From contig CM000154.2 of NCBI GenBank assembly GCA_000004695.1, positions 288,001-352,000 of the forward strand: 64,000 bases of DNA, read 5' to 3'. The notes beneath the pieces are model-generated. The model was not told where the DNA came from and searched no databases. It was given only the letters and a program-made list of their open reading frames with translations. A program made the translations under genes and the position numbers. Shown one piece after another: positions 22,037 through 37,069 of the stretch. The DNA comes from Dictyostelium discoideum (taxonomy: Eukaryota). Within the stretch, counting starts at the first letter, position 1; each line of letters starts with the position of its first letter.

Positions 22037-22647
22037 TTAAGTTTTTTTTTTTTTTTTTATAACTTTATGATAATAAAAATAAAATAATATTGGAGATAAT
22101 AAAGAATATCGATAAAAAAAAAAATTAAAAAAAAAAAAAAAAGAAAAAAAAAAAGAAAAAAAAAAAAAATTAAAAACCAAAAAAACCAATTTTTATACCC
22201 CCTTAACACATCAATTAATAATTATATTTTTCAATATTATTTGAAAAGCCACGTGTTTTAATATCGTCTTCATTTCCTAAAAAAACAATATCTTTTTTTT
22301 TTTTTTTTTTAATTCAACCAAACAATTTTCAATTTACAATTTCTTTCAAACAAAAAAAAAAAAAAAAAAAAGCTATTACCAAAAGAAATTAATGAAAATC
22401 AAAACTAAAATTAAATTAGATTTTTTTTTTTTAAATTTTTTTTTGTTAATTTTAATTTTGATTTTCATGTATTTTTTTTAAAAAATATCTTATTTTTTTT
22501 TTTTCGCACTAAATATCAAATTATTAATAAAAAAAAAAAAAAAACAAATTTGGCCCGAACTATGAAGTAAATTGTTATTTAATTTTTAAATAATCAAATA
22601 ATTGTTTAAAATAAGTTTAAATTGTTTTTGTTATATAAATTATTTTT

Positions 22648-22707
<60 letters not shown>

Positions 22708-22850
22708 GTATTTTAACACCAGTTATACATAGTGTATTTTAGTTGTCCCATGCCAAAATTTAGTGTGAAAACTCACTGCCTTTTAGATAGAAAAATTTTC
22801 AAAAAAAAATACAAAAATAAGAGATAAAATAATGAATATACACACCAGGT

Positions 22851-23520
22851 ATCAAATCATTTGAATAATATTTAGCATTTTCTATTGGATTTGATCGTGC
22901 ATTATAACATTTGCTATCAGAACAGCCACAAGTTAGATAGCCGGGACATGTATTATTTGTATCATTTGGATTGCATGAACTTAAGCTTGGTTCGACATAT
23001 TCTATGCAAATATCATTTGAGCACTAAATAATAATAATAATTATATTAATATTAATAATAATAATAATAATAATAAATGTTAATTATTATTGTACCATTT
23101 TATTTGAATTAAACTCCATTTCAAAACATACATTAATCCTTTATTATAATCACAAACACCGTTTCCTGAACAATCTCCACCTACTTCAAAGAGTGACCTT
23201 TGAACACAACTATTTCTTTTCCCACATATCAAACTACCTAAGCAATTATTTGTTTTAGTACAATTTTCACCCTACAACTTGATTAATTTGCAAGAACTAC
23301 TGTAACCTACATTAGGGGTATATCCAGTTGTTTCACAATACTCGTTATAATTGCAATTGGCGTCATTACTGGCACAATCTTTTGAATACAATTTACATTT
23401 TAAACAAACAAATTCATCAGTAGCACAATTTAAATTTAATTCACAGTTTTCACCAAGAGTTGAAAACTCAAAATCCAAACATTGGTAAACTTTTTTTTTT
23501 ATCCAAAAGACATTTCATTT
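22851..23520 (-). pseudogene. 3-prime remnant (unit 6) of the cysteine-rich tandem-array gene
   Basis: Only the exon 3-like and exon 4-like regions remain (ORF 23272..23478, and CSNDICIEYVEPSLSSCNPN... near 22900-23030). Exon 3 has an in-frame TAG (IKL* where paralogs read IKLEGESC) and an A10 run that shifts the frame. Exon 4 is truncated after KYYSNDL and lacks the hydrophobic tail. No exon 1 or exon 2 homologs are found upstream. Confidence 0.65.
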
Positions 23521-24970
23521 TATTTTTTTTTTTTTTTCTTTATTTATTAAATCCAAAATAAAAATTTTTTGAAAAAAAAAACTAACAACCAATCCACGGT
23601 CAATCTAAATTTTAAAATTTTTTTTTTTATTTTTTTAATCTTTTCCTAGATTCCCAAAAAAAAATACGTTTCCAAAGCATAATTCCCCTAAAAAATTTTT
23701 AAAAAAAATATTTTAGAAACACAAAAGATATTTAAATTTTTTCCCTAGGTTTCTAAAAAAAAAAGAAAAAAATAAAAACATAATTCTTTTTTTTTTTTAT
23801 TTTTTTTTTTTGATCTTATCATCTTTTGGTGATCAAACCAATAATTTCTTAAATCTTTTTTTTTTTTTTTTTAATGCTTTTTTTTAATTATTTTATACTC
23901 TTAACAATTAATAAAAAGAAAAAAAAATAAAAAAAATTTCTAACTTTTGATTTTAATCATTTTCTTGTAAATGACAGAATAATTCTCTTTATTTAAAATA
24001 ATCCAGTAGAATATCAATTTTTTTTTTTAAAAAAAAAAAAAAAACATTTTTAAAATATTATTAGTCCTTTTCGTTTTATATTTTTTTAAAATATTATTAG
24101 TACTTTTCATTTAATATTTTTTTATATTGAACTGGTATAAAAAAAGTTTTTGGGTTGAAAAAAAAAAATTGGTGAGGAAAAAAAAAAAAAAAAATTAAAA
24201 ATAAATTAAATTAGGTAAAATTAAAATCAAATTAATAAACCTGTTCATTATTTAGTTTTCATTGAAAAAATTTTAATACAAATAAAAAAAAACAAATAAT
24301 GAATGAGTATAAAAAAAAAAATTTATGAGGAAAAAAAAAATTAGTGGGAAAATAAAGATTTTAAAAAGCAAAAAAAGAAAAAAAAAAAAAAGGTGGAAAA
24401 TTCCACAATAAAATTTTAACTCAATATAATAAAAATGCCTCAATTAATAATAATGTTTTAAAATTTCAGATGTATCATTCATCCATATGATGTTTCTGAA
24501 ACCAATAAATTCCCTTCACATGGACTTCTGATGATCCTCTTGATATAGCCATCAACCTTCAAGATTGTTATGAATATAGTATACAAGTTTGAATGATAAT
24601 TTTTTGATCACTTTAAACCTACCAAAAAACACAACACCATAAACAAATATATTTTTAAAATAATTAAACCAAATTAATATATGTATTATTATTTTTTTTT
24701 TTTCCACACATATTTTTTTTTAATAGGAATTTTTTTTTTTATTCCAGTTCATTTCCTATTTTTTTTTTTTACAAAATGGTTATAAAAACTTTATATTAAA
24801 ATTTAATATTATTATTATTAGAGTTTTCCAATTATTTTTTCCAGTATACTATTATTTATATTTTTAATATTAAGATGATAGAAATGAATTTATATTTTTT
24901 ATTTATTTATTTATACAACTTTTTATTAAATTTTATAAAAAATTAATTTTTATTTTTTTTAATTCAATTA

Positions 24971-25780
24971 TTAAAATAAATCTTTTAATCTTGATAATAA
25001 TAATGATCTACTATAGAGTGTATCACTTGATAATAAAATTTGTTTAATTAAAATATTCATATGACTCATATAAAGGGCATCAGTTAAAATGAATTGGGAA
25101 TAAAGGTTAACTTCATTAATAAAATTTGGCATTAAATTTGCAATTTCATTGAGAGGAGTTTTCAAATTATTTAAATGTGAAGAAACTGATAATACTGATT
25201 TAATGACCAATTCATAATTACTGATTACAACTTGATAGGTGGCAACATTTGGTGAATTTGGTGATAAGGAATTTTTTGTATTATTCATTAAAGTTGCTAA
25301 TGTTATAGCTGATTGTTTAACTGAATCAATATTTGTAATTAAATTATTAATTGATGATGAAATTGTATTAAATCTACTTGTATCCATATTTGTAAATTTT
25401 GTAAGAGTATTTAAATAACCAACTGTATTATTTAAACTAACAATTCCCAAATTATTTGCATTATTATATAAGGAAATTAAATTTTGATAATGTGATGATG
25501 CTCCAAATAAATCATTATTTGATAATGCAATTATATTATTTAAAAAATATTTACTAAATGTAATATTAAACACATCCGATGGGTTTTCAACTTGAATTGA
25601 ACTTGCCAAAATTAAAATACTTGTTTGATCATCATTAAGAAGTAACGAAGCACGTGAAAAATCAGCCGGTGTCATAATACTGGAGCCTGTAATTGGGACA
25701 TAATTTGAAATTAGTGAATTGGAAAAACTGAAAAGAGAAACTAAATAAATTAAAAAGAAAATTGAATAAAATTTAAACAT
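24971..25780 (-). CDS. Secreted Asn/Ser-rich hypothetical protein, 269 aa
   Basis: It is a clean ORF with an N-terminal signal peptide (MFKFYSIFFLIYLVSLFSFSNS) and coding-like composition in an AT-rich context. I recognise no domain. Confidence 0.6.
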   Translation of the reverse strand: MFKFYSIFFLIYLVSLFSFSNSLISNYVPITGSSIMTPADFSRASLLLNDDQTSILILASSIQVENPSDVFNITFSKYFLNNIIALSNNDLFGASSHYQNLISLYNNANNLGIVSLNNTVGYLNTLTKFTNMDTSRFNTISSSINNLITNIDSVKQSAITLATLMNNTKNSLSPNSPNVATYQVVISNYELVIKSVLSVSSHLNNLKTPLNEIANLMPNFINEVNLYSQFILTDALYMSHMNILIKQILLSSDTLYSRSLLLSRLKDLF

Positions 25781-26012
25781 TGTGTGTTTTTAATAATAAA
25801 AATAATTAAAGTATATTGAAATATAATTTTGATGAATAAAATAAATAAAGTAAATAATTATTTATAAAAAAATATTGTAATTTTGATTTAATAAAAAAAA
25901 AAAAAAAACTCTGTTTAAATAAGAAAAAAAAAAAATGTAAACTTTACAAGAATTATTTTTTTTTTTTTTTTTTTTATAAACTAAGAATCATACTCAAAAC
26001 TTGAGATTTGGT

Positions 26013-26043
<31 letters not shown>

Positions 26044-26531
26044 GTAAAGCTCAAAAACACACTTCATTTTAACTTATTTTTAAAGTCATGACAAAAATAT
26101 CACAAAGTTTTACAAAAAAAAAAAAAATTAATGGTATTATTTTATTTATTTTTATTTTTTTTAATTATTTATTTCTGGTTCTTTTGCCACATATGCGAAT
26201 TTTTCTTTTTATTTAAGGAATTATTATTGTGGTGGGTTGAATGATTCTTTATTTTTTTGGAAAAAAAGGAAAAAGCCTTGTGAATAAAGAAAAAAAAACT
26301 TGAAAAAAAGGAAATACTGAGAATTTCTCTATTTTTTTTTTTTTTCATGAATTTTTACATGTAAAAAAAAAAAAGTGAACAAGAAATGATTGAAAACTGT
26401 TTTTTTTTTTTTTTTTTTTTTCAGTTCGACCACCACCATATGGTGGTATTATTCTTGAAATCAAAAAGGAACACTAAAATCTTAGGAACCTAAATTATTT
26501 GAAATTAATATAAAAAAGAGAAATCTTTTTC

Positions 26532-26843
26532 TTATGATTTATCTAGTTCTGCACTATCTTCATATTGATGTTCATATGCTATTGTTGATAAATTAATATC
26601 AGGAGAAACTGCTTTTTCATCTTCTTCTGCAACTGCATTTAAATTATCATCAAAACTACTCTTATCATTAAATGAAAATGTATCTACTAAATATTTCTTT
26701 GTCATATATCTTTTATAAACCAATGAAATTATAACTAGTGATAAAATTGATGCTGTTCCTAAAATAGTTAAAATAATAACAATATTCCTTGTTCTATAAT
26801 TTTTTTGTGGTTTTCTTGTATGAATTGGAATTTCTGATGTTCC

Positions 26844-26885
<42 letters not shown>

Positions 26886-27396
26886 AGTTGTTGTTGTTGT
26901 TGTTGTTGTTGTTGTTGATATTCCTGTAGTTGTTGATACTCCTGTTGTTGTTGGTATATTAGTTGGTGCTTCTGTTGGTGAACTGCATGGATAATAATCA
27001 GTATTAATTTTAGTATCATCTTGATAGAAATTGCATTCTTTGCAACCACAAATAGTATTATTTGATATTGTCATAAGTTTAAGGTATACGGTAGAGTTAT
27101 TACCAATGATTGGAGATTGACTAAAAGATAGATTTAAATTGGTTAAAGTTAAAAAACTATTGATAGAGTTGAATAAACGATTTGAAGAGATTAAAGGAAA
27201 AAACAGTTTAAACTCAAATTCCAGTGTACTATTTTCTATATAGACTAAATCATTTTCAATTGTATTTGATGGTGAATACTTTAAATAATCCTTTAAAAAT
27301 AAATTTGATTCTTTTAGTACTGTAAATGCTGATTCAAATTTATATTGACCATATGTTGAATTTTGGTTAATTGCAATACTACTACTACTACTTCTA

Positions 27397-27429
<33 letters not shown>

Positions 27430-28475
27430 GTAGTAATATTTGAGAATTTAATATTTTCTAATCTTGTTAAAACTGATGATGAAAAAGGAGAGAAACATTT
27501 ATAAAAATATATAAATGTGGATAATTGATTATTAAAGAAATTAAAATCTAGTAATCTAACAGTTGAGTTGATTGATAATATGAATGGACTTGAAAAATAA
27601 CTATTTGATATTGACTCCAACCCTGAATTTGACACATCACCAGACCTTATGAATATAAAAGGCGTTGACAAGAACTCACTATTCTCCACATCTAAAATAT
27701 AAACAATACTGCCACCCACTATATAAATTGGTGAAATAAAATCACCATTGGATACCAATGCATTTGTTGATGGTGATGGTGATGGTGGTGACCTTAAGTT
27801 ATAACCAGTTGTTGAAATAAAGTAAACCAATATTGAGTCTTTTTTATAAACAATTTCATCAGCATCACTGTCATTTATCGGATAAATATTAATTATACTA
27901 CTTGAAGAAATTATATTTACAAATCTAAAAAATATTGCAACATATTTTGAACTATCTTGTGGAGTTGGGTTTGTTTCTTGATTGATGTTAATTTTCACAA
28001 TTGTTTGATCCCAATTTGTAAAATTAATACCTGCAAAAAGGAACCGTCTCTGTGTTGCACACGGGTAGGTTGAATTTGGTTGAACTGCTTCTTGAATGCT
28101 AAGAAATGGCTGTGTTGTCGAGCTGCCACCTCCATCAATGTTTACATTGGTCGTGTCACTACTTGATTTAATCCATAAAATACCACAATAATTATATAAA
28201 TTTCCTAATGTAACCGCTGTTGTAATTGATGATTGGTTGATATCGCCACTAATGATAATGCTATTTGGATTATTTTGATTTTCAATTTTTGATAATAAAA
28301 TCGCTCTATTCCCAGCATCCTCTAATGATGTACATACTGGTTCATCTGCTAAACCACACTCTTCAAATGAATTATAATTTCTTTCAACATTATAATTAAC
28401 TGCAATATCAAAAGAAATCACAAAAGTATTATAATATAAAATAATTAATATATAAAAATAAATTTTTTTAATCAT
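26532..28475 (-). CDS. Type I membrane glycoprotein with a large extracellular domain, a poly-Thr stalk, one TM helix and a short acidic cytoplasmic tail; about 647 aa
   Basis: The ORF runs 26532..28613, but the first ATG is at 28475 (MIKKIYFYILIILYYNTFVISF, a signal peptide). The track M at 28613 is a non-ATG codon in an AT-rich leader. The ectodomain is Ser/Asn-rich (possibly beta-helix-like), followed by a T30 stalk and the TM helix IVIILTILGTASILSLVIISLV. Confidence 0.65.
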
Positions 28476-29721
28476 ATATGATAATTTTATAATTCTTTTT
28501 TTTTTTTTTTCAGTATTGGTTTGAATTAAAAAAAAAAAAAGTTTTATCAAAAAAAAAAAACTTTTTTTTTTGATTTTTTTTTTTTCAAATAAAATCTCTT
28601 TGGTAATTACCAAAAAATTTTAAAAAAAAAAAATAAAAAATTAATGGTGGGTTTTTTTTTTTTTTTTTTAATTCAAACCAATTGTTTGATCCCAATTTGT
28701 AAAATTAATACCTGCAAAAAGGTTGAACACAATCTTTTACTTAAAATGAACATTGTATATACAAGTATTTACTTTAAAAATTTATATTTATGGTTTTGAT
28801 TATTTTAATAATAAAATAAAATAAAATAAAATAAAATAAAATAAAAAATTATTTAAGTAACAAAATAAATCAATGACATTTGAAGAGGTTTTTTTTTTAT
28901 TTTTTTTTTTTATTTACCCATGGTCATATTAAAGTAATTAAAATTCTCTTTTTTGTTTATTATTATTTTTTTTTTTTTTTTTTCAAAAAAATTTTGTTTT
29001 TAAGATTTTTTTTTTTTTTTTATAGTTATAAAAATAAACTGATAAATAATGAAGTGTTGTGGATGAGAAAAAAAAAACTAAAAAAAAAAAAAAAAAAAAT
29101 ACAAGTTATTTTTTTTTTTTTTTCACAAAATTATTTTTTATAACGAATATTTGACAAAACATATTAGGTTCTTGAACTTTTTTTTTTTTTTTGGGTGGCA
29201 GGAGATTTTTGCAGAAAAAAAATTGGTAAAAATAGACAACAACCTCATACTGATGTCCAAGATATTTTTTTTTTTTTTCTTTTACAAAAAATTAATTTTT
29301 ATTTTTAATTTTTTTTTTTGATAACTTATAATTAAATAAAGATTTTCAATTTTTTACATTATTCAAAATTATCTTGTTGCACTTATAAAAGTGGGGAAAA
29401 AAAATAAAAAAAAATTGAAATTTTAACCCTTATGAAAAATAAAAAAATCTAATACAAAAAATGTTGTAAAAAAAAAAAAATAATAAAAAGAAAACAACAA
29501 AAATATTATGAACTGATTAAAGTTAAAATAAAAGTTAAAAAAGTAACAAACATTGCTCATTTGAGATCGAATTCAACAATTGTTTAATCTTTCTTCCCAA
29601 ATCTATTTAAACTTTTGCTCTGAGCCATTCTAATTGTGATTTAGACCAAATTATTTTTCTTAAAACTCAGTTATCTGGTTTGGATGTCCCATGCCAAAAT
29701 TACTATGGTAATTCACCAGCC

Positions 29722-29819
29722 ATATTAATTTCAGCATATAACACCTGTTTTTAGGCTGAAATTAATATGTTAAAATTGTCCTGCTGAAATTAATATGTCT
29801 AAATGAAATTAATATATAA
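29722..29819. repeat. 15-bp inverted repeat (catattaatttcagc / gctgaaattaatatg) with a 19-nt spacer, followed by two more direct copies of ctgaaattaatat
   Basis: Seen directly at 29722-29735 and 29755-29768 (inverted) and at 29782-29796 and 29803-29817 (direct). It lies in an intergenic island that is richer in GC than its surroundings. Confidence 0.7.
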
Positions 29820-30003
29820 ATACAAAAAAAAATAAATGAATAAAAATCACCAAAAAAAAAAAAATCTTTTTGTTCATTCCCACAATTACAAAAAATGAAA
29901 ACTAATTATTTTTTAATTTATTTAATTTTATTTAGTTATTTATAAATATTAATTATTACAATATATAATATAAAAACAATACAAACTTTGTTTTGTTGAT
30001 TTG

Positions 30004-30027
<24 letters not shown>

Positions 30028-30034
<7 letters not shown>

Positions 30035-32988
30035 AATGCAGAAGTTTGTTGTTGAACTGGAGAAGAAGTTGAAGAAAAAGTTACAGGTTTACTACCACTT
30101 GAATTTAATACACTACCACTATTTGGAGGACTACCAACAGAAGTGACATTATTTGAGGCGGTTGAAGTTGTGGTGGTGGTGGTTGAAGGTGGTGGACCAG
30201 AGATTGTTTGTTTTCTATTTTGAATTGGTTTTGTAGAAACTTTACCACGACCTCTAATGGTTTCAGCTTTTCTTTTTAAGAGTTGTTCAAAGTTTGGATT
30301 ACTATGAATGTTTGATTTAATTGATTGAACCCAACTATCCATTTCGGCCATATTTGCAGCGGCGATAAAATAAGCGGCATGATTTGCTTGAACCAAAGTA
30401 CCATCGGAATTCAATTTACAAGCTTTCATTTGCTCCTGTGAGGAATGAAGCATAAAACAAAACTTTTTCTGTGGGTCGATGGTGACGACAACATTCTCCA
30501 ATGGAATGATACCACAAGGTTCATGATCTTGAGGGGTCTTATAGTAGAGTAAACAATTGGCGGTCAATATGAACCAACGCTTCTTCCAAGTCTTAATTCT
30601 ACCACCTTGCTTTGTTAACCAACCTTTCTTTTCAACATGTTGATTTGCTTGATTACCATCACGCTCCATCTTAATTTCGTTGGTAACGATTTTATCATAA
30701 AGATTCTCCATGAAATCGGGTGGTAAATCATCACCACTATTGATACCACTATTATTACGAAGGAATTCAGCTTTGGTCATTTTCTTCTTTATGTTTGGAT
30801 TATGAGCATCAGTGTTTAACATAATCACAGAGAAAGCCAATACATAGACAGCATCTTGATTTACAAATACCTTATTCTCTGGATTATGTTGATAGAATTG
30901 TGATGCAAATTTCTCCATCATACGATCGATCTTTTGAGCTTCACCAGGCAATCTAAAAGTGAGTAGATATTTACGTAATGCCACATCGAAATCCAATCCA
31001 AAAAAGTTTAATTCATCTACAAATGCATGGAGTACTTGAAGGTTGAAATCATCACCTTCACCAATATACTCACCAATGGATTGTTTTGAAAGTTCACTAT
31101 GAGTCAAAAGGAAATGTGCAACCTCTTTTGGATTCTTTTCACTAATTACACCATTGGCAACAATGAATTCAATACCTTTCTTTGGATGGCTATTAAATTG
31201 AGCGATTGCAGCTTTAATCAATAACAATTTTTGTTTCTCTGCGGCCAATTGTTCCATATCTTCTTTGGCCTGTTGTTCCAAAGCCAATTGAAGTTCATCG
31301 ACTTCATGATTGGATGATTCACGTTTATTGACGATTTGATAGATTTCATCATGATTCTCGGTACCAAAGGTTTTTGTGAAATCAACTGATGAACGTAGAC
31401 TAACTTGATCTAAATCTGCACCCGCTCTAATTAAAACACGAGCCACATCGGAATGATTCTTTTTGATGGCATAAACCAATGGAGTTTTACCTGCAAAGTT
31501 TTTAGCATCAATACGTGCCTTAAATTGAATTAACACATCCACTGTATCACGAGCACCAGCTGCACTTGCCAAATGTAATGGTGTACTTGAATGGGTGTCG
31601 ACGGCATTAACATTTGCACCCTTTTTCAAGAGGATTCTACAACAATCCGAATGACCATTGTAGGCTGCATTATGTAGGGGCGTACCACCTTGACTATCTT
31701 TAACCTCCAATTCAGCACCACTTCTGATCAATGTTGCCAAACATTTACTTCTACCATTGAATGCTGCTTTATGTAATGGTGTTGCGCCTTGACTATCAAC
31801 GATGCAAATGGGTGCTCCTTTATCGACCAATAGCTTGGCACAAGATGAATGGCCATTGAATGATGCTTTGTGTAGTGGTGTTGCCCCCTCTTCATCCTTG
31901 ATATTGATTTGTGCTTTATAACGAATGAGTAGATCTACCATATCAAGTAAACCATTGAATGCTGCCAAATGAAGTGAAGTTGATTGACGACTATCTCTGC
32001 AATCGATCATTGTTGGATCTAAATATAAAAGATATTCACAAACTTCTTTATGTCCATTGAATGCTGCTTTATGTAATGGTGTTTCACCCATTTCATCCAC
32101 CATATTAATCTTTGCTCCTAACTCTATTAAACGTTTGGTTAATTGTAGGTTACCATTGAAACATGTATGATGTAACGGTGTGACACCCTCGATATCGACA
32201 CAATTGATGTTCTCACCATTTCTTACCAATTGCTCAACACAATCTACATAGCCTGCAGATGCGGCATTGTGTAATGGTGAAATACCATGAATGTCACGAG
32301 GATCCACTTTTGCGCCCTTTTTCAATAATAATGATACACAACTTGAATGACCACTAAATGAAGCTTGATGTAATGGTGTGATACAATCATTGTCCACTGC
32401 ATTCACTTTGGAGTCGGCCTTAATCAACAACTCTACACATTGTGGATTACCACCAGCAGATGCATGATGTAACGGTGTTTCACCATTGGTTGTCACTGCT
32501 CTTGGATCTGCTTTACCATTTAATAAATATAGTACACATTCTGCTGATGCAAATAATGATGCTTTGTGTAGTGGCGTACCATTTTTATCATCTTTGGTAT
32601 TAACGTCCACTCCACCTTTTTCTACCAATAGTTTGATACACTCTAAATGTCCTCTACTTGATGCCCATTGCAAGGGAGTATTACCTGCTGAATCTTTAAT
32701 GTTGGCATTTGCTTTCTTATCTAACAAAAAGTTTACACATGCTGCTGATCCACAAAATGCTGCATGATGTAATGGTGTTCTCTTTTCAGAATCTGGTGTA
32801 TCTGGTGATGTTGCTGAATTATTCAAAAGATTTGATAACTTTTCAATATCACCTGTAGATGAATAATAATGTACTGATGGTCTTGTTGGTGCTGAATTTG
32901 AATGTTTTGCTGTTGTTGCTGGTGCTGCTGTTGTTGTTGTTGTTGTTGTTGATCCTGTATTCTTTGTTGAATTTGATGTTGATCCCAT
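30028..32988 (-). CDS. secG: Arf guanine-nucleotide exchange factor with N-terminal ankyrin repeats, a Sec7 domain and a PH domain, 986 aa
   Basis: It has at least 14 ankyrin repeats (TPLHxAAxxGH pattern). The Sec7 domain carries the catalytic glutamic-finger motif FRLPGEAQKIDRMMEKFA. A PH domain follows (KKGWLTKQGGRIKTWKKRWFIL). This architecture matches the described Dictyostelium cytohesin-like SecG. The symbol is assigned from memory of that architecture, not from a search. Confidence 0.75.
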
Positions 32989-35673: not shown

Positions 35674-37069
35674 TATTTGAAAAATATAAACCTGTATCAA
35701 ATGATAAATATTCTAATTGAGTAAATACTTTTGAAACTTTATTAAATGGAGTTGAGTAAATTAAGCCTTTATAATCAATAATTGAAATTGGTTTTTTAAA
35801 TAAACAATATTTATAACCATATTGAATTTCATAATAAAAGAATGATTCATATCCAATTTTAAATTGAGATTGCATTTTATGCCAATTAATTTCAAAATTT
35901 AAACAATGTGACAACATATTATAAAATTTCCAATTTGTTAATGCAATTGAAAAAATATCATTTTTAATTTCATTGAATATAAAAGTTGATAAATATATAC
36001 AATATTTTGATTTAATTAAATTATTAATTAAAATTAATGATGGTGATGATGATGTTGATGACGATGATAAATTTGGAATTTGATGATTTATATTTCTATT
36101 ATAAGTAATTAAAATTATTATAATTTTTATAATTATTTCATTTGGTAAAATTTCAAAATTATTATTATAATTATTAATTTTATTATTATCATTATTTAAT
36201 ATTTTATTTATTTTTAATATTTTTAATTTATTTTTATTTTCAAATTCCATTTTATTAAAATATTTAAAAATTGGATTAAATAAATATTTTTCATTTGTAA
36301 TTTTTAAACCATTTTTAATTATATTAATAAATTTTAAAATAAAATTAAGTTCTTGATTATCTTTGTTATTAAATTCATTATAACACATTTTATTAGCTAA
36401 TAATGATTTTAAAAGAAATGATAAATTAAAATTTGTAATTAATAAATTAAATATTTTAAATTGATTATTTTTTAAAAAAAATAATTTTAATTTCAATTTA
36501 TCTGATAATATCATTTGTAAAAGGTCTGATGTATTTCTTTGATTTAATGATATATTTGTAGATTTATGATAATATTTATTATAAAATTGAATTACCATTG
36601 GTATGACATTATTACCACTACCATCATCTAATAATAATGATGATAAATATTTGAAAAATTCATTTCTATTAAATATTGATTTATTATTAAAAAATTGAAA
36701 ATGTTGAAGTGAGATGAATAGTCTAATAGTTTCATTTTCATTGAATTTAAAAGTTTCAAATATTTCAATGAATTCTTCATAAGGAACTATTGAATATTCT
36801 GTTTGAGGATCTTCTTCACCATTTTCATTTTCACCTAAAATATAATATCCAAATGATCTTAATAGTTCAATTGATAATTGTTCAATTTTAACTTTTTTTT
36901 CAATTAATTTATTTATTACCAATTTTCTATTATTTAAATAAACATTTTCATAATTTGATTTATCAATTAAAATTTTATCATTTACGTCAATTGTAAATAA
37001 CAATTTTTCATTAAATTTATTTGAATGTTTTTTAAATAAATTTATAATTTCAAAATTTATTTCAAACAT
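35189..37069 (-). CDS. Asn-rich hypothetical protein, 626 aa
   Basis: It is a long clean ORF with ATG in aaATG context and has poly-N tracts. I recognise no domain. Confidence 0.55.

Follow-up and report, generated by a model that had tools for sequence, protein, structure and literature searches.

Short subterminal repeats, arranged in arrays, are a feature of class II transposons, as seen in the 12-bp motifs of CACTA/En-Spm and the AAACGG motifs of Ac/Ds elements. Inverted transposon repeats can reportedly also give rise to small RNAs, with Piriyapongsa and Jordan (2007/2008) said to have derived human miR-548 from Made1, and MIR genes of plants from MITEs. The thug-S miRNAs are said to have been first reported by Avesson et al. 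in 2012. The thug-S hairpin module is the source of these multicopy miRNAs, which appear as miRNA_can_D3 in Meier et al. 2016, the published pair being UAUGGCUGCUGAAAUUAAUGUGG and AUUAAUUUCGGCAGCCAUAUU. Thug elements make up ~0.1% of the genome (PMC5633606), with one thug-S copy placed at chr5:425 kb by table S4 of Meier et al. 2016, ~34 kb past the window, as we call the 64,000-nt stretch of Dictyostelium discoideum DNA analysed here. The consensus arms of the Rfam family mir-7131 (RF03716), aauauGG.CuGCuGaaauuaauauGgu / acCauauuaauuuCaGCaa.CCauauu, equal the published thug-S miRNAs, which ties this family to thug-S.

Two intergenic islands of the window share a 17-mer and are compared here with these systems. 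The features concerned are as follows.

22700-22760, plus strand: island 1 copy of a ~60-nt shared block, consisting of the 17-mer and a left flank whose similarity is weak and broken by indels (p ~0.02 for the flank in local alignment)
22744-22760, plus strand: 17-mer copy 1, TGTCCCATGCCAAAATT
22799-23011, minus strand: last exon of a truncated Cys-rich ORF, ending in GVYIHYFISYFCIFF and the stop codon
28678-29891, no strand: middle of the spacer between secG and the next gene, holding island 2, unalignable to three sister species
29556-29822, no strand: island 2 as a whole, GC 0.29-0.32, no ORF of at least 40 aa
29648-29701, plus strand: island 2 copy of the shared block (local alignment)
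29681-29745, minus strand: hairpin A, formed by units U1 and U0, 65 nt, 24 bp, 11-nt loop
29685-29701, plus strand: 17-mer copy 2, TGTCCCATGCCAAAATT, the first 17 nt of U0
29685-29708, plus strand: U0, TGTCCCATGCCAAAATTACTATGG, the most diverged unit (alignment A1; 18.6 bits against a unit profile built with U0 included)
29718-29800, no strand: alternative hairpins U1/U2 and U1/U3
29719-29741, minus strand: U1, the sole inverted unit, TTATATGCTGAAATTAATATGGC on the minus strand
29749-29771, plus strand: U2, TTTTAGGCTGAAATTAATATGTT
29776-29799, plus strand: U3, TTGTCCTGCTGAAATTAATATGTC, with a TGTCC prefix in common with U0
29802-29820, plus strand: U4, AATGAAATTAATATATAAA, truncated and AT-decayed
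30028-32988, minus strand: SecG-like gene (ankyrin repeats, Sec7, PH; 986 aa), given for context

The preliminary description had reported an identical 17-mer in two short islands of elevated GC that lack ORFs, and both copies are verified, on the same strand. Its picture of the islands holds for island 2, which stands out from surroundings with a GC content of 0.1-0.2, and neither island contains an ORF longer than 31 aa. Island 1, however, is not a free-standing island, with a GC content of only 0.25-0.27 and its 17-mer following the stop codon (22801-22799, minus strand) of the truncated Cys-rich ORF at a distance of 39-55 nt. The left boundary of the island 1 block is a 57-nt poly(A) tract (22646-22702), and the EB module is matched by paralogues in the Cys-rich array. 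The motif aaaactca is indeed found near both copies of the 17-mer (at 22768 and 29662), but on opposite sides of it and hence not collinear, and this 8-mer is not enriched in the window (5 found vs 7.7 expected).

The 17-mer occurs exactly twice in the window (22744 and 29685), with no further copies when up to 3 mismatches are allowed. Amongst the exact repeated 17-mers of the window with at least 6 G/C it forms the sole unexplained pair, the others being attributed to the Cys-rich paralogue array, ankyrin repeats, trinucleotide runs, and one local 44-nt duplication. Any repeated 17-mer with at least 7 G/C appears in 2% of 300 Markov-1 simulated windows and in 2% of 300 block-shuffled windows, so that a chance origin of the repeat is unlikely, though not overwhelmingly so. 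The left flanks of the two copies (22700-22743 and 29648-29684) are weakly similar (~65% identity with indels), with 18 of 1000 shuffles scoring as high in local alignment. The right flanks add no similarity, and no homology between the islands was found past ~60 nt on either strand. The perfect 17/17 match beside a diverged flank would fit a conserved functional motif of a repeat family.

Island 2 holds a cluster of five copies of a 20-25 nt unit, one of which is inverted relative to the four direct ones, and the core of the unit is GCTGAAATTAATATG(G). The sequence CTGAAATTAATATG occurs exactly three times in the window, at 29721 (minus strand), 29756 (plus strand), and 29784 (plus strand), compared with an expectation of 0.21, and a truncated copy, TGAAATTAATAT, lies at 29804. 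Both the inverted repeat (15 bp, 19-nt loop; 29721-29735 / 29755-29769) and the further direct motif copies previously described in this island were recovered. The 17-mer makes up the 5' two-thirds of U0; the preliminary description overlooked that it thus itself belongs to a diverged unit pairing with the inverted unit. Alignment A1 reveals the common core TGC(T/C)(G/A)AAATTA.T.TG in U0-U4, the island 1 copy, the thug-S miRNAs, and the Rfam arms. Searching the window and related loci with the unit profile (R1) yielded no convincing extra copies, the best new match (35814-35837, 12 bits) looking like a chance occurrence in apparent coding sequence.

Prediction of RNA secondary structure, which the preliminary description had proposed as a check, shows island 2 folding into alternative hairpins. 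On the minus strand, hairpin A is formed by 19 Watson-Crick and 5 G·U pairs with only two 1-nt internal loops, and has a predicted free energy of -23.6 kcal/mol (z = -3.9), compared with only -15.3 kcal/mol on the plus strand; the 17-mer forms its basal 3' arm. U1 is competed for by three alternative hairpins, the U1/U2 hairpin having 15 perfect base pairs and a 19-nt loop (z = -6.2, plus strand), and the U1/U3 hairpin having 19-nt arms that are 95% complementary and a 45-nt loop.

The closest likeness of island 2 is to the thug-S hairpin, a comparison made over the ~20-nt unit against the published miRNA sequences and the Rfam arms. The 19-nt core of the thug-S miRNA (UAUGGCUGCUGAAAUUAAUGUGG) has two matches in the window with up to 3 mismatches, compared with an expectation of 0.01, and both lie inside island 2, mutually inverted and matching at 16/19 positions. 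U3 matches this core at 16/19 positions, and U1 aligns with the 5p miRNA at 19/23 across a 2-nt gap. The mir-7131 hairpin and hairpin A are collinear, with the 5' arm of the latter matching 5p at 19/23 positions and its 3' arm matching the first 13 nt of 3p at 11/13, and the arm order is the same. Both are AT-rich hairpins from an inverted pair of ~23-nt units, occur in the same species group, and have in common the hairpin-arm core GCTGAAATTAAT.TGG and its complement. In contrast to thug-S, hairpin A carries a 2-nt deletion in its 5' arm, is fully diverged past 13 nt in its 3' arm (the TGGGACA part of the 17-mer), and has a loop of 11 nt rather than about 30-40 nt, with three extra direct units following in island 2. 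Furthermore, the published miRNA loci (chr5 425 kb and 4.80 Mb, chr3, and chr2) exclude the island 2 locus, and neither full-length UAUGGCUGCUGAAAUUAAUGUGG nor AUUAAUUUCGGCAGCCAUAUU is found in the window or related loci with up to 3 mismatches. The mir-7131 covariance model scores 22 bits on island 2 (E = 0.066 over 551 nt), short of the gathering score of 74 bits, and this score is unusable as evidence of membership because unrelated miRNA models score alike on the same DNA (mir-216 24.5 bits, MIR7993 24.2 bits), which is generic hairpin noise. The thug-S miRNA 20-mer, compared against metagenome, prokaryote-genome, and viral collections, returned only six single, non-AT-rich chance matches.

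The distribution of the units is species-specific in the loci compared, which comprise 23-kb syntenic loci of D. citrinum, D. firmibasis, and D. dimigraforme, and a second D. discoideum assembly (L001, L005) extending ~5 kb past the window. The 17-mer and the unit are present in the second D. discoideum assembly, with island 2 at 100% identity, and are absent from the three sister loci even with 2-3 mismatches allowed, giving two partial copies in D. discoideum (the window and ~5 kb) and zero in the sisters. The spacer between secG and the next gene is 1547 nt here, compared with 995, 467, and 275 nt in the three relatives. Since the middle of this spacer cannot be aligned in the sister species, no empty site or insertion boundaries are definable. 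The inverted units found are internal ones only, and neither terminal inverted repeats nor a target-site duplication nor an empty site came to light; a single inverted pair further out (29636-29661 / 29825-29850) has 73% complementarity and is of low complexity.

We lean towards reading both islands as degenerate remnants, confined to this lineage, of a small family of repeats with a relationship to the thug-S hairpin module, and infer a transposon origin for them; a species-specific transposon relic is the most likely identity. The short units, placed in both orientations, would once have acted as subterminal transposase-binding or foldback repeats, and the present copies would be immobile relics with at most residual hairpin-RNA potential, although the predicted folds suggest that island 2 may possibly still be able to form a hairpin RNA. 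Island 1 would then be a ~60-nt fragment, comprising a diverged unit and its flank, that sits where the Cys-rich gene lost its 3' part. The transposon terminal fragment or MITE put forward in the preliminary description, which had also listed thug among the repeat libraries to consult, is borne out in part, with the unit matching the arms of the thug-S miRNA hairpin and absent from the three sister loci, but no terminus is seen. Several observations count against a thug-S-related relic, the sub-threshold mir-7131 score and the lack of terminal structures among them. Island 1 carries the diverged unit alone, without the canonical core, and scores below E = 10 against the unit profile. The portion of the 17-mer that gives its GC content (TGTCCCA) is without counterpart in the thug-S miRNA sequences, and no match was obtained for the leftmost 130 nt of island 2 (29556-29684).

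A relic of this kind can be set beside the two transposon systems introduced above. As in the subterminal arrays of CACTA/En-Spm and Ac/Ds, island 2 has a short motif that recurs several times, and in either orientation, within ~140 bp; it differs in having no identified transposase, terminus, or second end, and a binding-site role for its units is purely conjectural. As with MITE-derived miRNAs, transcription through inverted transposon repeats would produce a hairpin of the Dicer type, and decayed copies lie dispersed close to genes. In contrast to those miRNAs, the hairpin of island 2 is a predicted one, and no complete MITE structure (terminal inverted repeats and target-site duplication) is defined for it.

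On a less probable reading, island 2 would be a functional gene, so far unannotated, for a hairpin or miRNA-like RNA. It would be paralogous to the thug-S miRNA hairpin but diverged from it, with a transcript made from the same (minus) strand as secG and processed by DrnB/RbdB. This overlaps with the relic explanation, since such a gene would still be transposon-derived. Canonical Dictyostelium miRNA precursors are recognised by a hairpin fold, by paired 5p and 3p reads with overhangs, and by DrnB/RbdB dependence (Meier 2016, Liao 2018), and the predicted hairpin A, with its 24 bp and low z score, provides the first of these, its arms resembling a validated miRNA pair. All five transition-type differences between its arms (5/5) form G·U pairs if the minus strand is read, where the plus strand would have A·C mismatches, a weak sign of constraint at the RNA level given that a random strand side would produce this outcome in 1 of 16 cases. 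Just upstream of the hairpin (29823, minus strand), a T-rich stretch with a G after it resembles the start motif of pri-miRNAs (PMC6161686), but carries no weight because this motif has 236 occurrences in the window. Against an RNA gene, the mir-7131 threshold is missed, no known miRNA in the supplements searched matches the island 2 locus, there is no conservation across the three sister species, and three hairpins competing for one inverted unit are unlike a precisely processed precursor. Of the non-coding RNA gene suggested in the preliminary description there thus remains a possible hairpin or miRNA-like RNA, with tRNAs, Class I/DUSE RNAs, and Rfam families at gathering score excluded. No family reached its gathering score in the whole window or four related loci, Rfam E-value scans gave nothing on island 1 and only sub-threshold miRNA-model matches on island 2, and ARAGORN predicted 0 tRNA genes in the 64 kb, in agreement with the cloverleaf previously noted as lacking, and none in the four related loci.

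An extension of this idea, which we regard as very improbable, would make island 2 a D. discoideum-specific candidate miRNA-like gene, derived from a thug-S-type hairpin on the minus strand downstream of secG, with the island 1 17-mer as its target and the pair caught at birth. Copy 1 of the 17-mer lies 7 kb from island 2 in the same-strand 3' flank of the truncated Cys-rich gene, and as its sequence is that of the hairpin 3' arm, it would be a ready-made, G·U-rich complement to a small RNA from the 5' arm.

It is improbable that the units are instead binding sites of a host DNA-binding protein, forming a shared cis-regulatory module that would act on neighbouring genes, for example on how the 3' ends of secG and the Cys-rich gene are formed or on the promoter of the downstream 693-aa ORF. 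Whilst each copy of the 17-mer comes after a minus-strand gene, downstream of its stop codon, with island 2 beginning ~205 nt downstream of that of the SecG-like gene, their distances to the stop codons are very different (39 nt vs 327 nt). Clusters of short repeats that face both ways typify factor-binding arrays, and the 17-mer is perfectly kept when its flank is not; however, the orthologous spacers of three close relatives, whose flanking genes are conserved, do not contain the module, and it has no copies near other genes in the 64 kb or the ~5 kb more in L005. Nothing specific emerged in favour of the shared regulatory module offered in the preliminary description.

We similarly doubt that the islands have no common origin, with the 17-mer a coincidence or micro-duplication, island 2 a local tandem and inverted duplication, and the resemblance to the thug-S miRNAs accidental. 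The 2% of composition-matched windows that hold some repeated GC-containing 17-mer, the marginal flank similarity, and the noise-level mir-7131 match are all consistent with such a reading. It would nevertheless require the coincidence of a 17-mer repeat, a flank similarity, a double match to the 19-mer core, and a position of the 17-mer within a unit that can be aligned with the other units and paired with the inverted one, each of them unlikely by itself.

DUSE-dependent ncRNA genes (Class I RNAs and snRNAs) have a DUSE ~60 nt ahead of the transcription start or TGTG box, together with an 11-nt motif and a terminal stem. The DUSE promoter element reportedly has the consensus [AT]CCCA[CT]AA (Hinas and Söderbom). 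Its three consecutive C residues and ~60 nt spacing are described in PMC7919456. A DUSE-type element (TCCCAT..) driving a small ncRNA gene (Class I RNA, snRNA, or snoRNA) is effectively refuted, in that the 17-mer resembles such genes in its CCC-containing motif in an AT-rich spacer, and supplies the first six bases of the consensus, but reads TCCCATGC, with GC where AA is needed, lacks the spacing, a TGTG box, the Class I 11-nt motif, or any RNA-like feature ~60 nt downstream of its copies, and words fitting the DUSE consensus show no enrichment in the window (4 found vs 10 expected).

If the transposon-relic reading is right, it accounts for two GC-containing islands that look odd within very AT-rich spacer DNA, and brings one more degenerate member to a transposon family that is small and poorly described. 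Beyond what is set out here the islands are ordinary. They would serve as an example of the decay of thug-S-type inverted units, and may show how such units seed new hairpin RNAs beside genes, in a genome in which the origins of miRNAs are being actively studied.

The GC-rich 17-mer TGTCCCATGCCAAAATT occurs on the plus strand at both 22744-22760 and 29685-29701, as the preliminary description had reported, and the observation is real, with no third copy in the extremely AT-rich window when up to three mismatches are allowed. Judged from the sequence, the two islands that carry it appear, on balance, to be degenerate remnants of a repeat related to thug-S, a Dictyostelium DNA transposon that is a source of miRNAs. 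The short units found in both orientations in island 2 (29556-29822) would then be a vestige of the foldback or subterminal repeat region of the element, with the 17-mer a conserved variant of the repeat unit, and island 1 (22700-22760) may be a ~60-nt fragment remaining at a rearrangement breakpoint. Of the origins proposed earlier, the transposon one, with thug among the candidates, is the best supported, but it holds for the repeat unit and not beyond it. We infer this origin, as well as any former binding-site role. Within 29685-29820, a unit of 20-25 nt is present five times (unit alignment A1):

29685-29708, plus strand: unit U0, TGTCCCATGCCAAAATTACTATGG
29719-29741, inverted: unit U1, minus-strand reading TTATATGCTGAAATTAATATGGC
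29749-29771, plus strand: unit U2, TTTTAGGCTGAAATTAATATGTT
29776-29799, plus strand: unit U3, TTGTCCTGCTGAAATTAATATGTC
29802-29820, plus strand: unit U4, truncated and AT-decayed

U0 is the most diverged of the five; the 17-mer makes up its 5' portion and shares a TGTCC prefix with U3. The inverted and direct repeats described for island 2 were recovered, with U1 and U2 pairing over 15 perfect bp around a 19-nt loop, and U1 and U3 pairing through 19-nt arms that are 95% complementary. U1 is also able to pair with U0, forming on the minus strand (29745..29681) a 24-bp hairpin in which 19 pairs are Watson-Crick and 5 are G·U; its free energy is -23.6 kcal/mol (z = -3.9), and all bases of the 17-mer fall within its basal 3' arm. 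The plus-strand fold has A·C mismatches in place of the G·U pairs and gets no lower than -15.3 kcal/mol. Weak matches to the unit profile or core at 35814-35837 and 35878-35894 on the minus strand (TATGAAATTCAATATGG and TTGAAATTAATTGGCAT, 60 nt apart) lie in apparently coding sequence and are judged to be chance. GAGATCGAATTC (29563-29574), on the left margin of island 2, bears a weak likeness (8/11) to the tRNA B-box consensus GGTTCGAATCC.

When island 2 is scanned against Rfam by E-value, mir-7131 (RF03716) heads the list, and the segment aligned is precisely the U1/U0 minus-strand hairpin. At 22 bits, the hit falls short of the gathering score (74), and unrelated miRNA models score 23-25 bits on neighbouring hairpins of the island, so the covariance-model score is no evidence of membership. 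The arms of the model's printed consensus, aauauGG.CuGCuGaaauuaauauGgu and acCauauuaauuuCaGCaa.CCauauu, equal the miRNA pair UAUGGCUGCUGAAAUUAAUGUGG and AUUAAUUUCGGCAGCCAUAUU in Table 2 of Meier et al. 2016 (PMC4894637), and RF03716 is therefore the thug-S miRNA family. When up to three mismatches are allowed, the window has two matches to the 19-nt core of the published miRNA (0.01 expected; two matches in 0/100 shuffles), both within island 2 and mutually inverted. The 5p arm of the published pair agrees with the U1/U0 hairpin at 19/23 positions with a 2-nt gap, and the 3p arm at 11 of its first 13 nt, diverging thereafter, with the diverging portion being the TGGGACA end of the reverse-complemented 17-mer. 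The S4 table of Meier et al. 2016 carries strand labels that appear at odds with the 5p/3p names; read as a single hairpin with a ~40-nt spacer, its pair agrees with the Rfam model. The same table places one of the published thug-S miRNA loci at chr5:425 kb, expected ~34 kb past the window. The miRNA supplements searched contain no precursor sequences, and six matches to the miRNA 20-mer in public DNA collections without Dictyostelium, each a single match in a non-AT-rich contig, are attributed to chance.

Partly overlapping with the transposon-relic reading is the possibility, which we consider unlikely, that the U1/U0 hairpin is a miRNA-like precursor still expressed from the minus strand. 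The one-sided pattern of its G·U pairs is a hint in this direction, with 1 in 16 expected were the side random, whereas the T-rich/G start motif upstream of the hairpin has 236 occurrences in the window and is therefore worthless as evidence.

The conservation of the islands was compared at the syntenic secG loci of three sister species, the secG gene of the window being:

30028-32988, minus strand: SecG-like protein of 986 aa, with ankyrin repeats, a Sec7 domain and a PH domain

D. discoideum SecG is likewise 986 aa long. An identical 986-aa protein is encoded in a second assembly of the same species (NCBI GCA_054883475.1), and its closest database relatives are from D. citrinum (97% identity), D. 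firmibasis, and D. dimigraforme. Neither the 17-mer nor the unit occurs at the secG loci of these three species, even at 2-3 mismatches, and BLASTN of island 2 against the same loci gives no match. The secG-to-next-gene spacer (window 28614-30027) is 1547 nt, with homologous spacers of 995 nt in D. citrinum (L002 12938-13932), 467 nt in D. firmibasis (L003 12941-13407), and 275 nt in D. dimigraforme (L004 12932-13206), and has expanded in the D. discoideum lineage. Alignment to D. citrinum is limited to the spacer ends (window 30060-29892 and 28677-28400), with the central 1.2 kb, where island 2 lies, not alignable. In the second assembly, which is 99.2% identical to the window over the spacer, both islands are identical or nearly identical. 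Absence from the relatives and presence in the second assembly therefore identify the islands as lineage-specific additions rather than conserved elements, which fits mobile-element debris and argues against an old functional ncRNA or a regulatory module; that the islands constitute such a module is improbable. The D. citrinum spacer contains ACCCTTGCCAAAATG (L002 13322-13336), a 12/17 match to the 17-mer in reversed orientation relative to secG, and TGCCA...TGGCA palindromes (L002 13800-13880) near the promoter of the downstream gene; they may be fortuitous or represent a TGCCAAAA-type promoter word.

Island 1, described initially as an intergenic island, in fact lies directly 3' of a truncated Cys-rich ORF, whose stop is at 22801-22799:

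22799-23011, minus strand: last Cys-rich ORF of the array, truncated relative to D. citrinum (compared with L002 20921-21410)

Array paralogues of this ORF match the EB module. In the ORF itself, homology to D. citrinum is lost below ~22904. Where the D. discoideum copy loses homology, the D. citrinum gene has ~300 nt more coding sequence; a short hydrophobic tail forms the end of the D. discoideum copy, and the 17-mer block and a long poly(T) come next on that strand. Immediately adjoining the island-1 block is a 57-nt poly(A) tract (22646-22702), which has 17 nt fewer in the second assembly and is therefore a length polymorphism. Automated annotation of that assembly's locus fuses the Cys-rich remnants into one 492-aa gene spanning ~3 kb.

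As the 17-mer was picked post hoc, the null was widened to all 17-mers that recur exactly in the window and contain 6 or more G/C, the others all lying in the Cys-rich array, the secG ankyrin repeats, trinucleotide runs, or a local 44-nt duplication. Of 300 Markov-1 simulations, 2% produced a repeated 17-mer containing 7 or more G/C, as did 2% of 300 block-shuffles. The left flanks (22700-22743 vs 29648-29684) show weak similarity with indels, with 18/1000 shuffles scoring equally high, and the islands share no similarity to the right of the 17-mer or farther out on either strand. The aaaactca words noted near both copies are present, but they flank the 17-mer on different sides in the two islands and show no enrichment. 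Pure chance is hardly a likely source of the islands. The exact 44-nt duplication (CAATTGTTTGATCCCAATTTGTAAAATTAATACCTGCAAAAAGG; 27998-28041 and 28679-28722) has one copy within the coding part of a 693-aa minus-strand ORF (26532-28613) and the other upstream of this gene, on the border of the block still alignable to D. citrinum.

A DUSE-driven ncRNA gene is effectively excluded, with 4 DUSE-consensus words found in the window vs 10 expected, and ARAGORN finds no tRNA in the window, in agreement with the earlier statement that no cloverleaf is evident. One perfect DUSE-consensus word, TCCCACAA, lies at 29878-29885 (plus strand) between island 2 and the secG stop codon, with no RNA-like feature evident ~60 nt downstream.

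Whilst there is a small chance that a young miRNA-like locus is represented here, the whole is most likely an ordinary, species-specific hairpin relic derived from a transposon.
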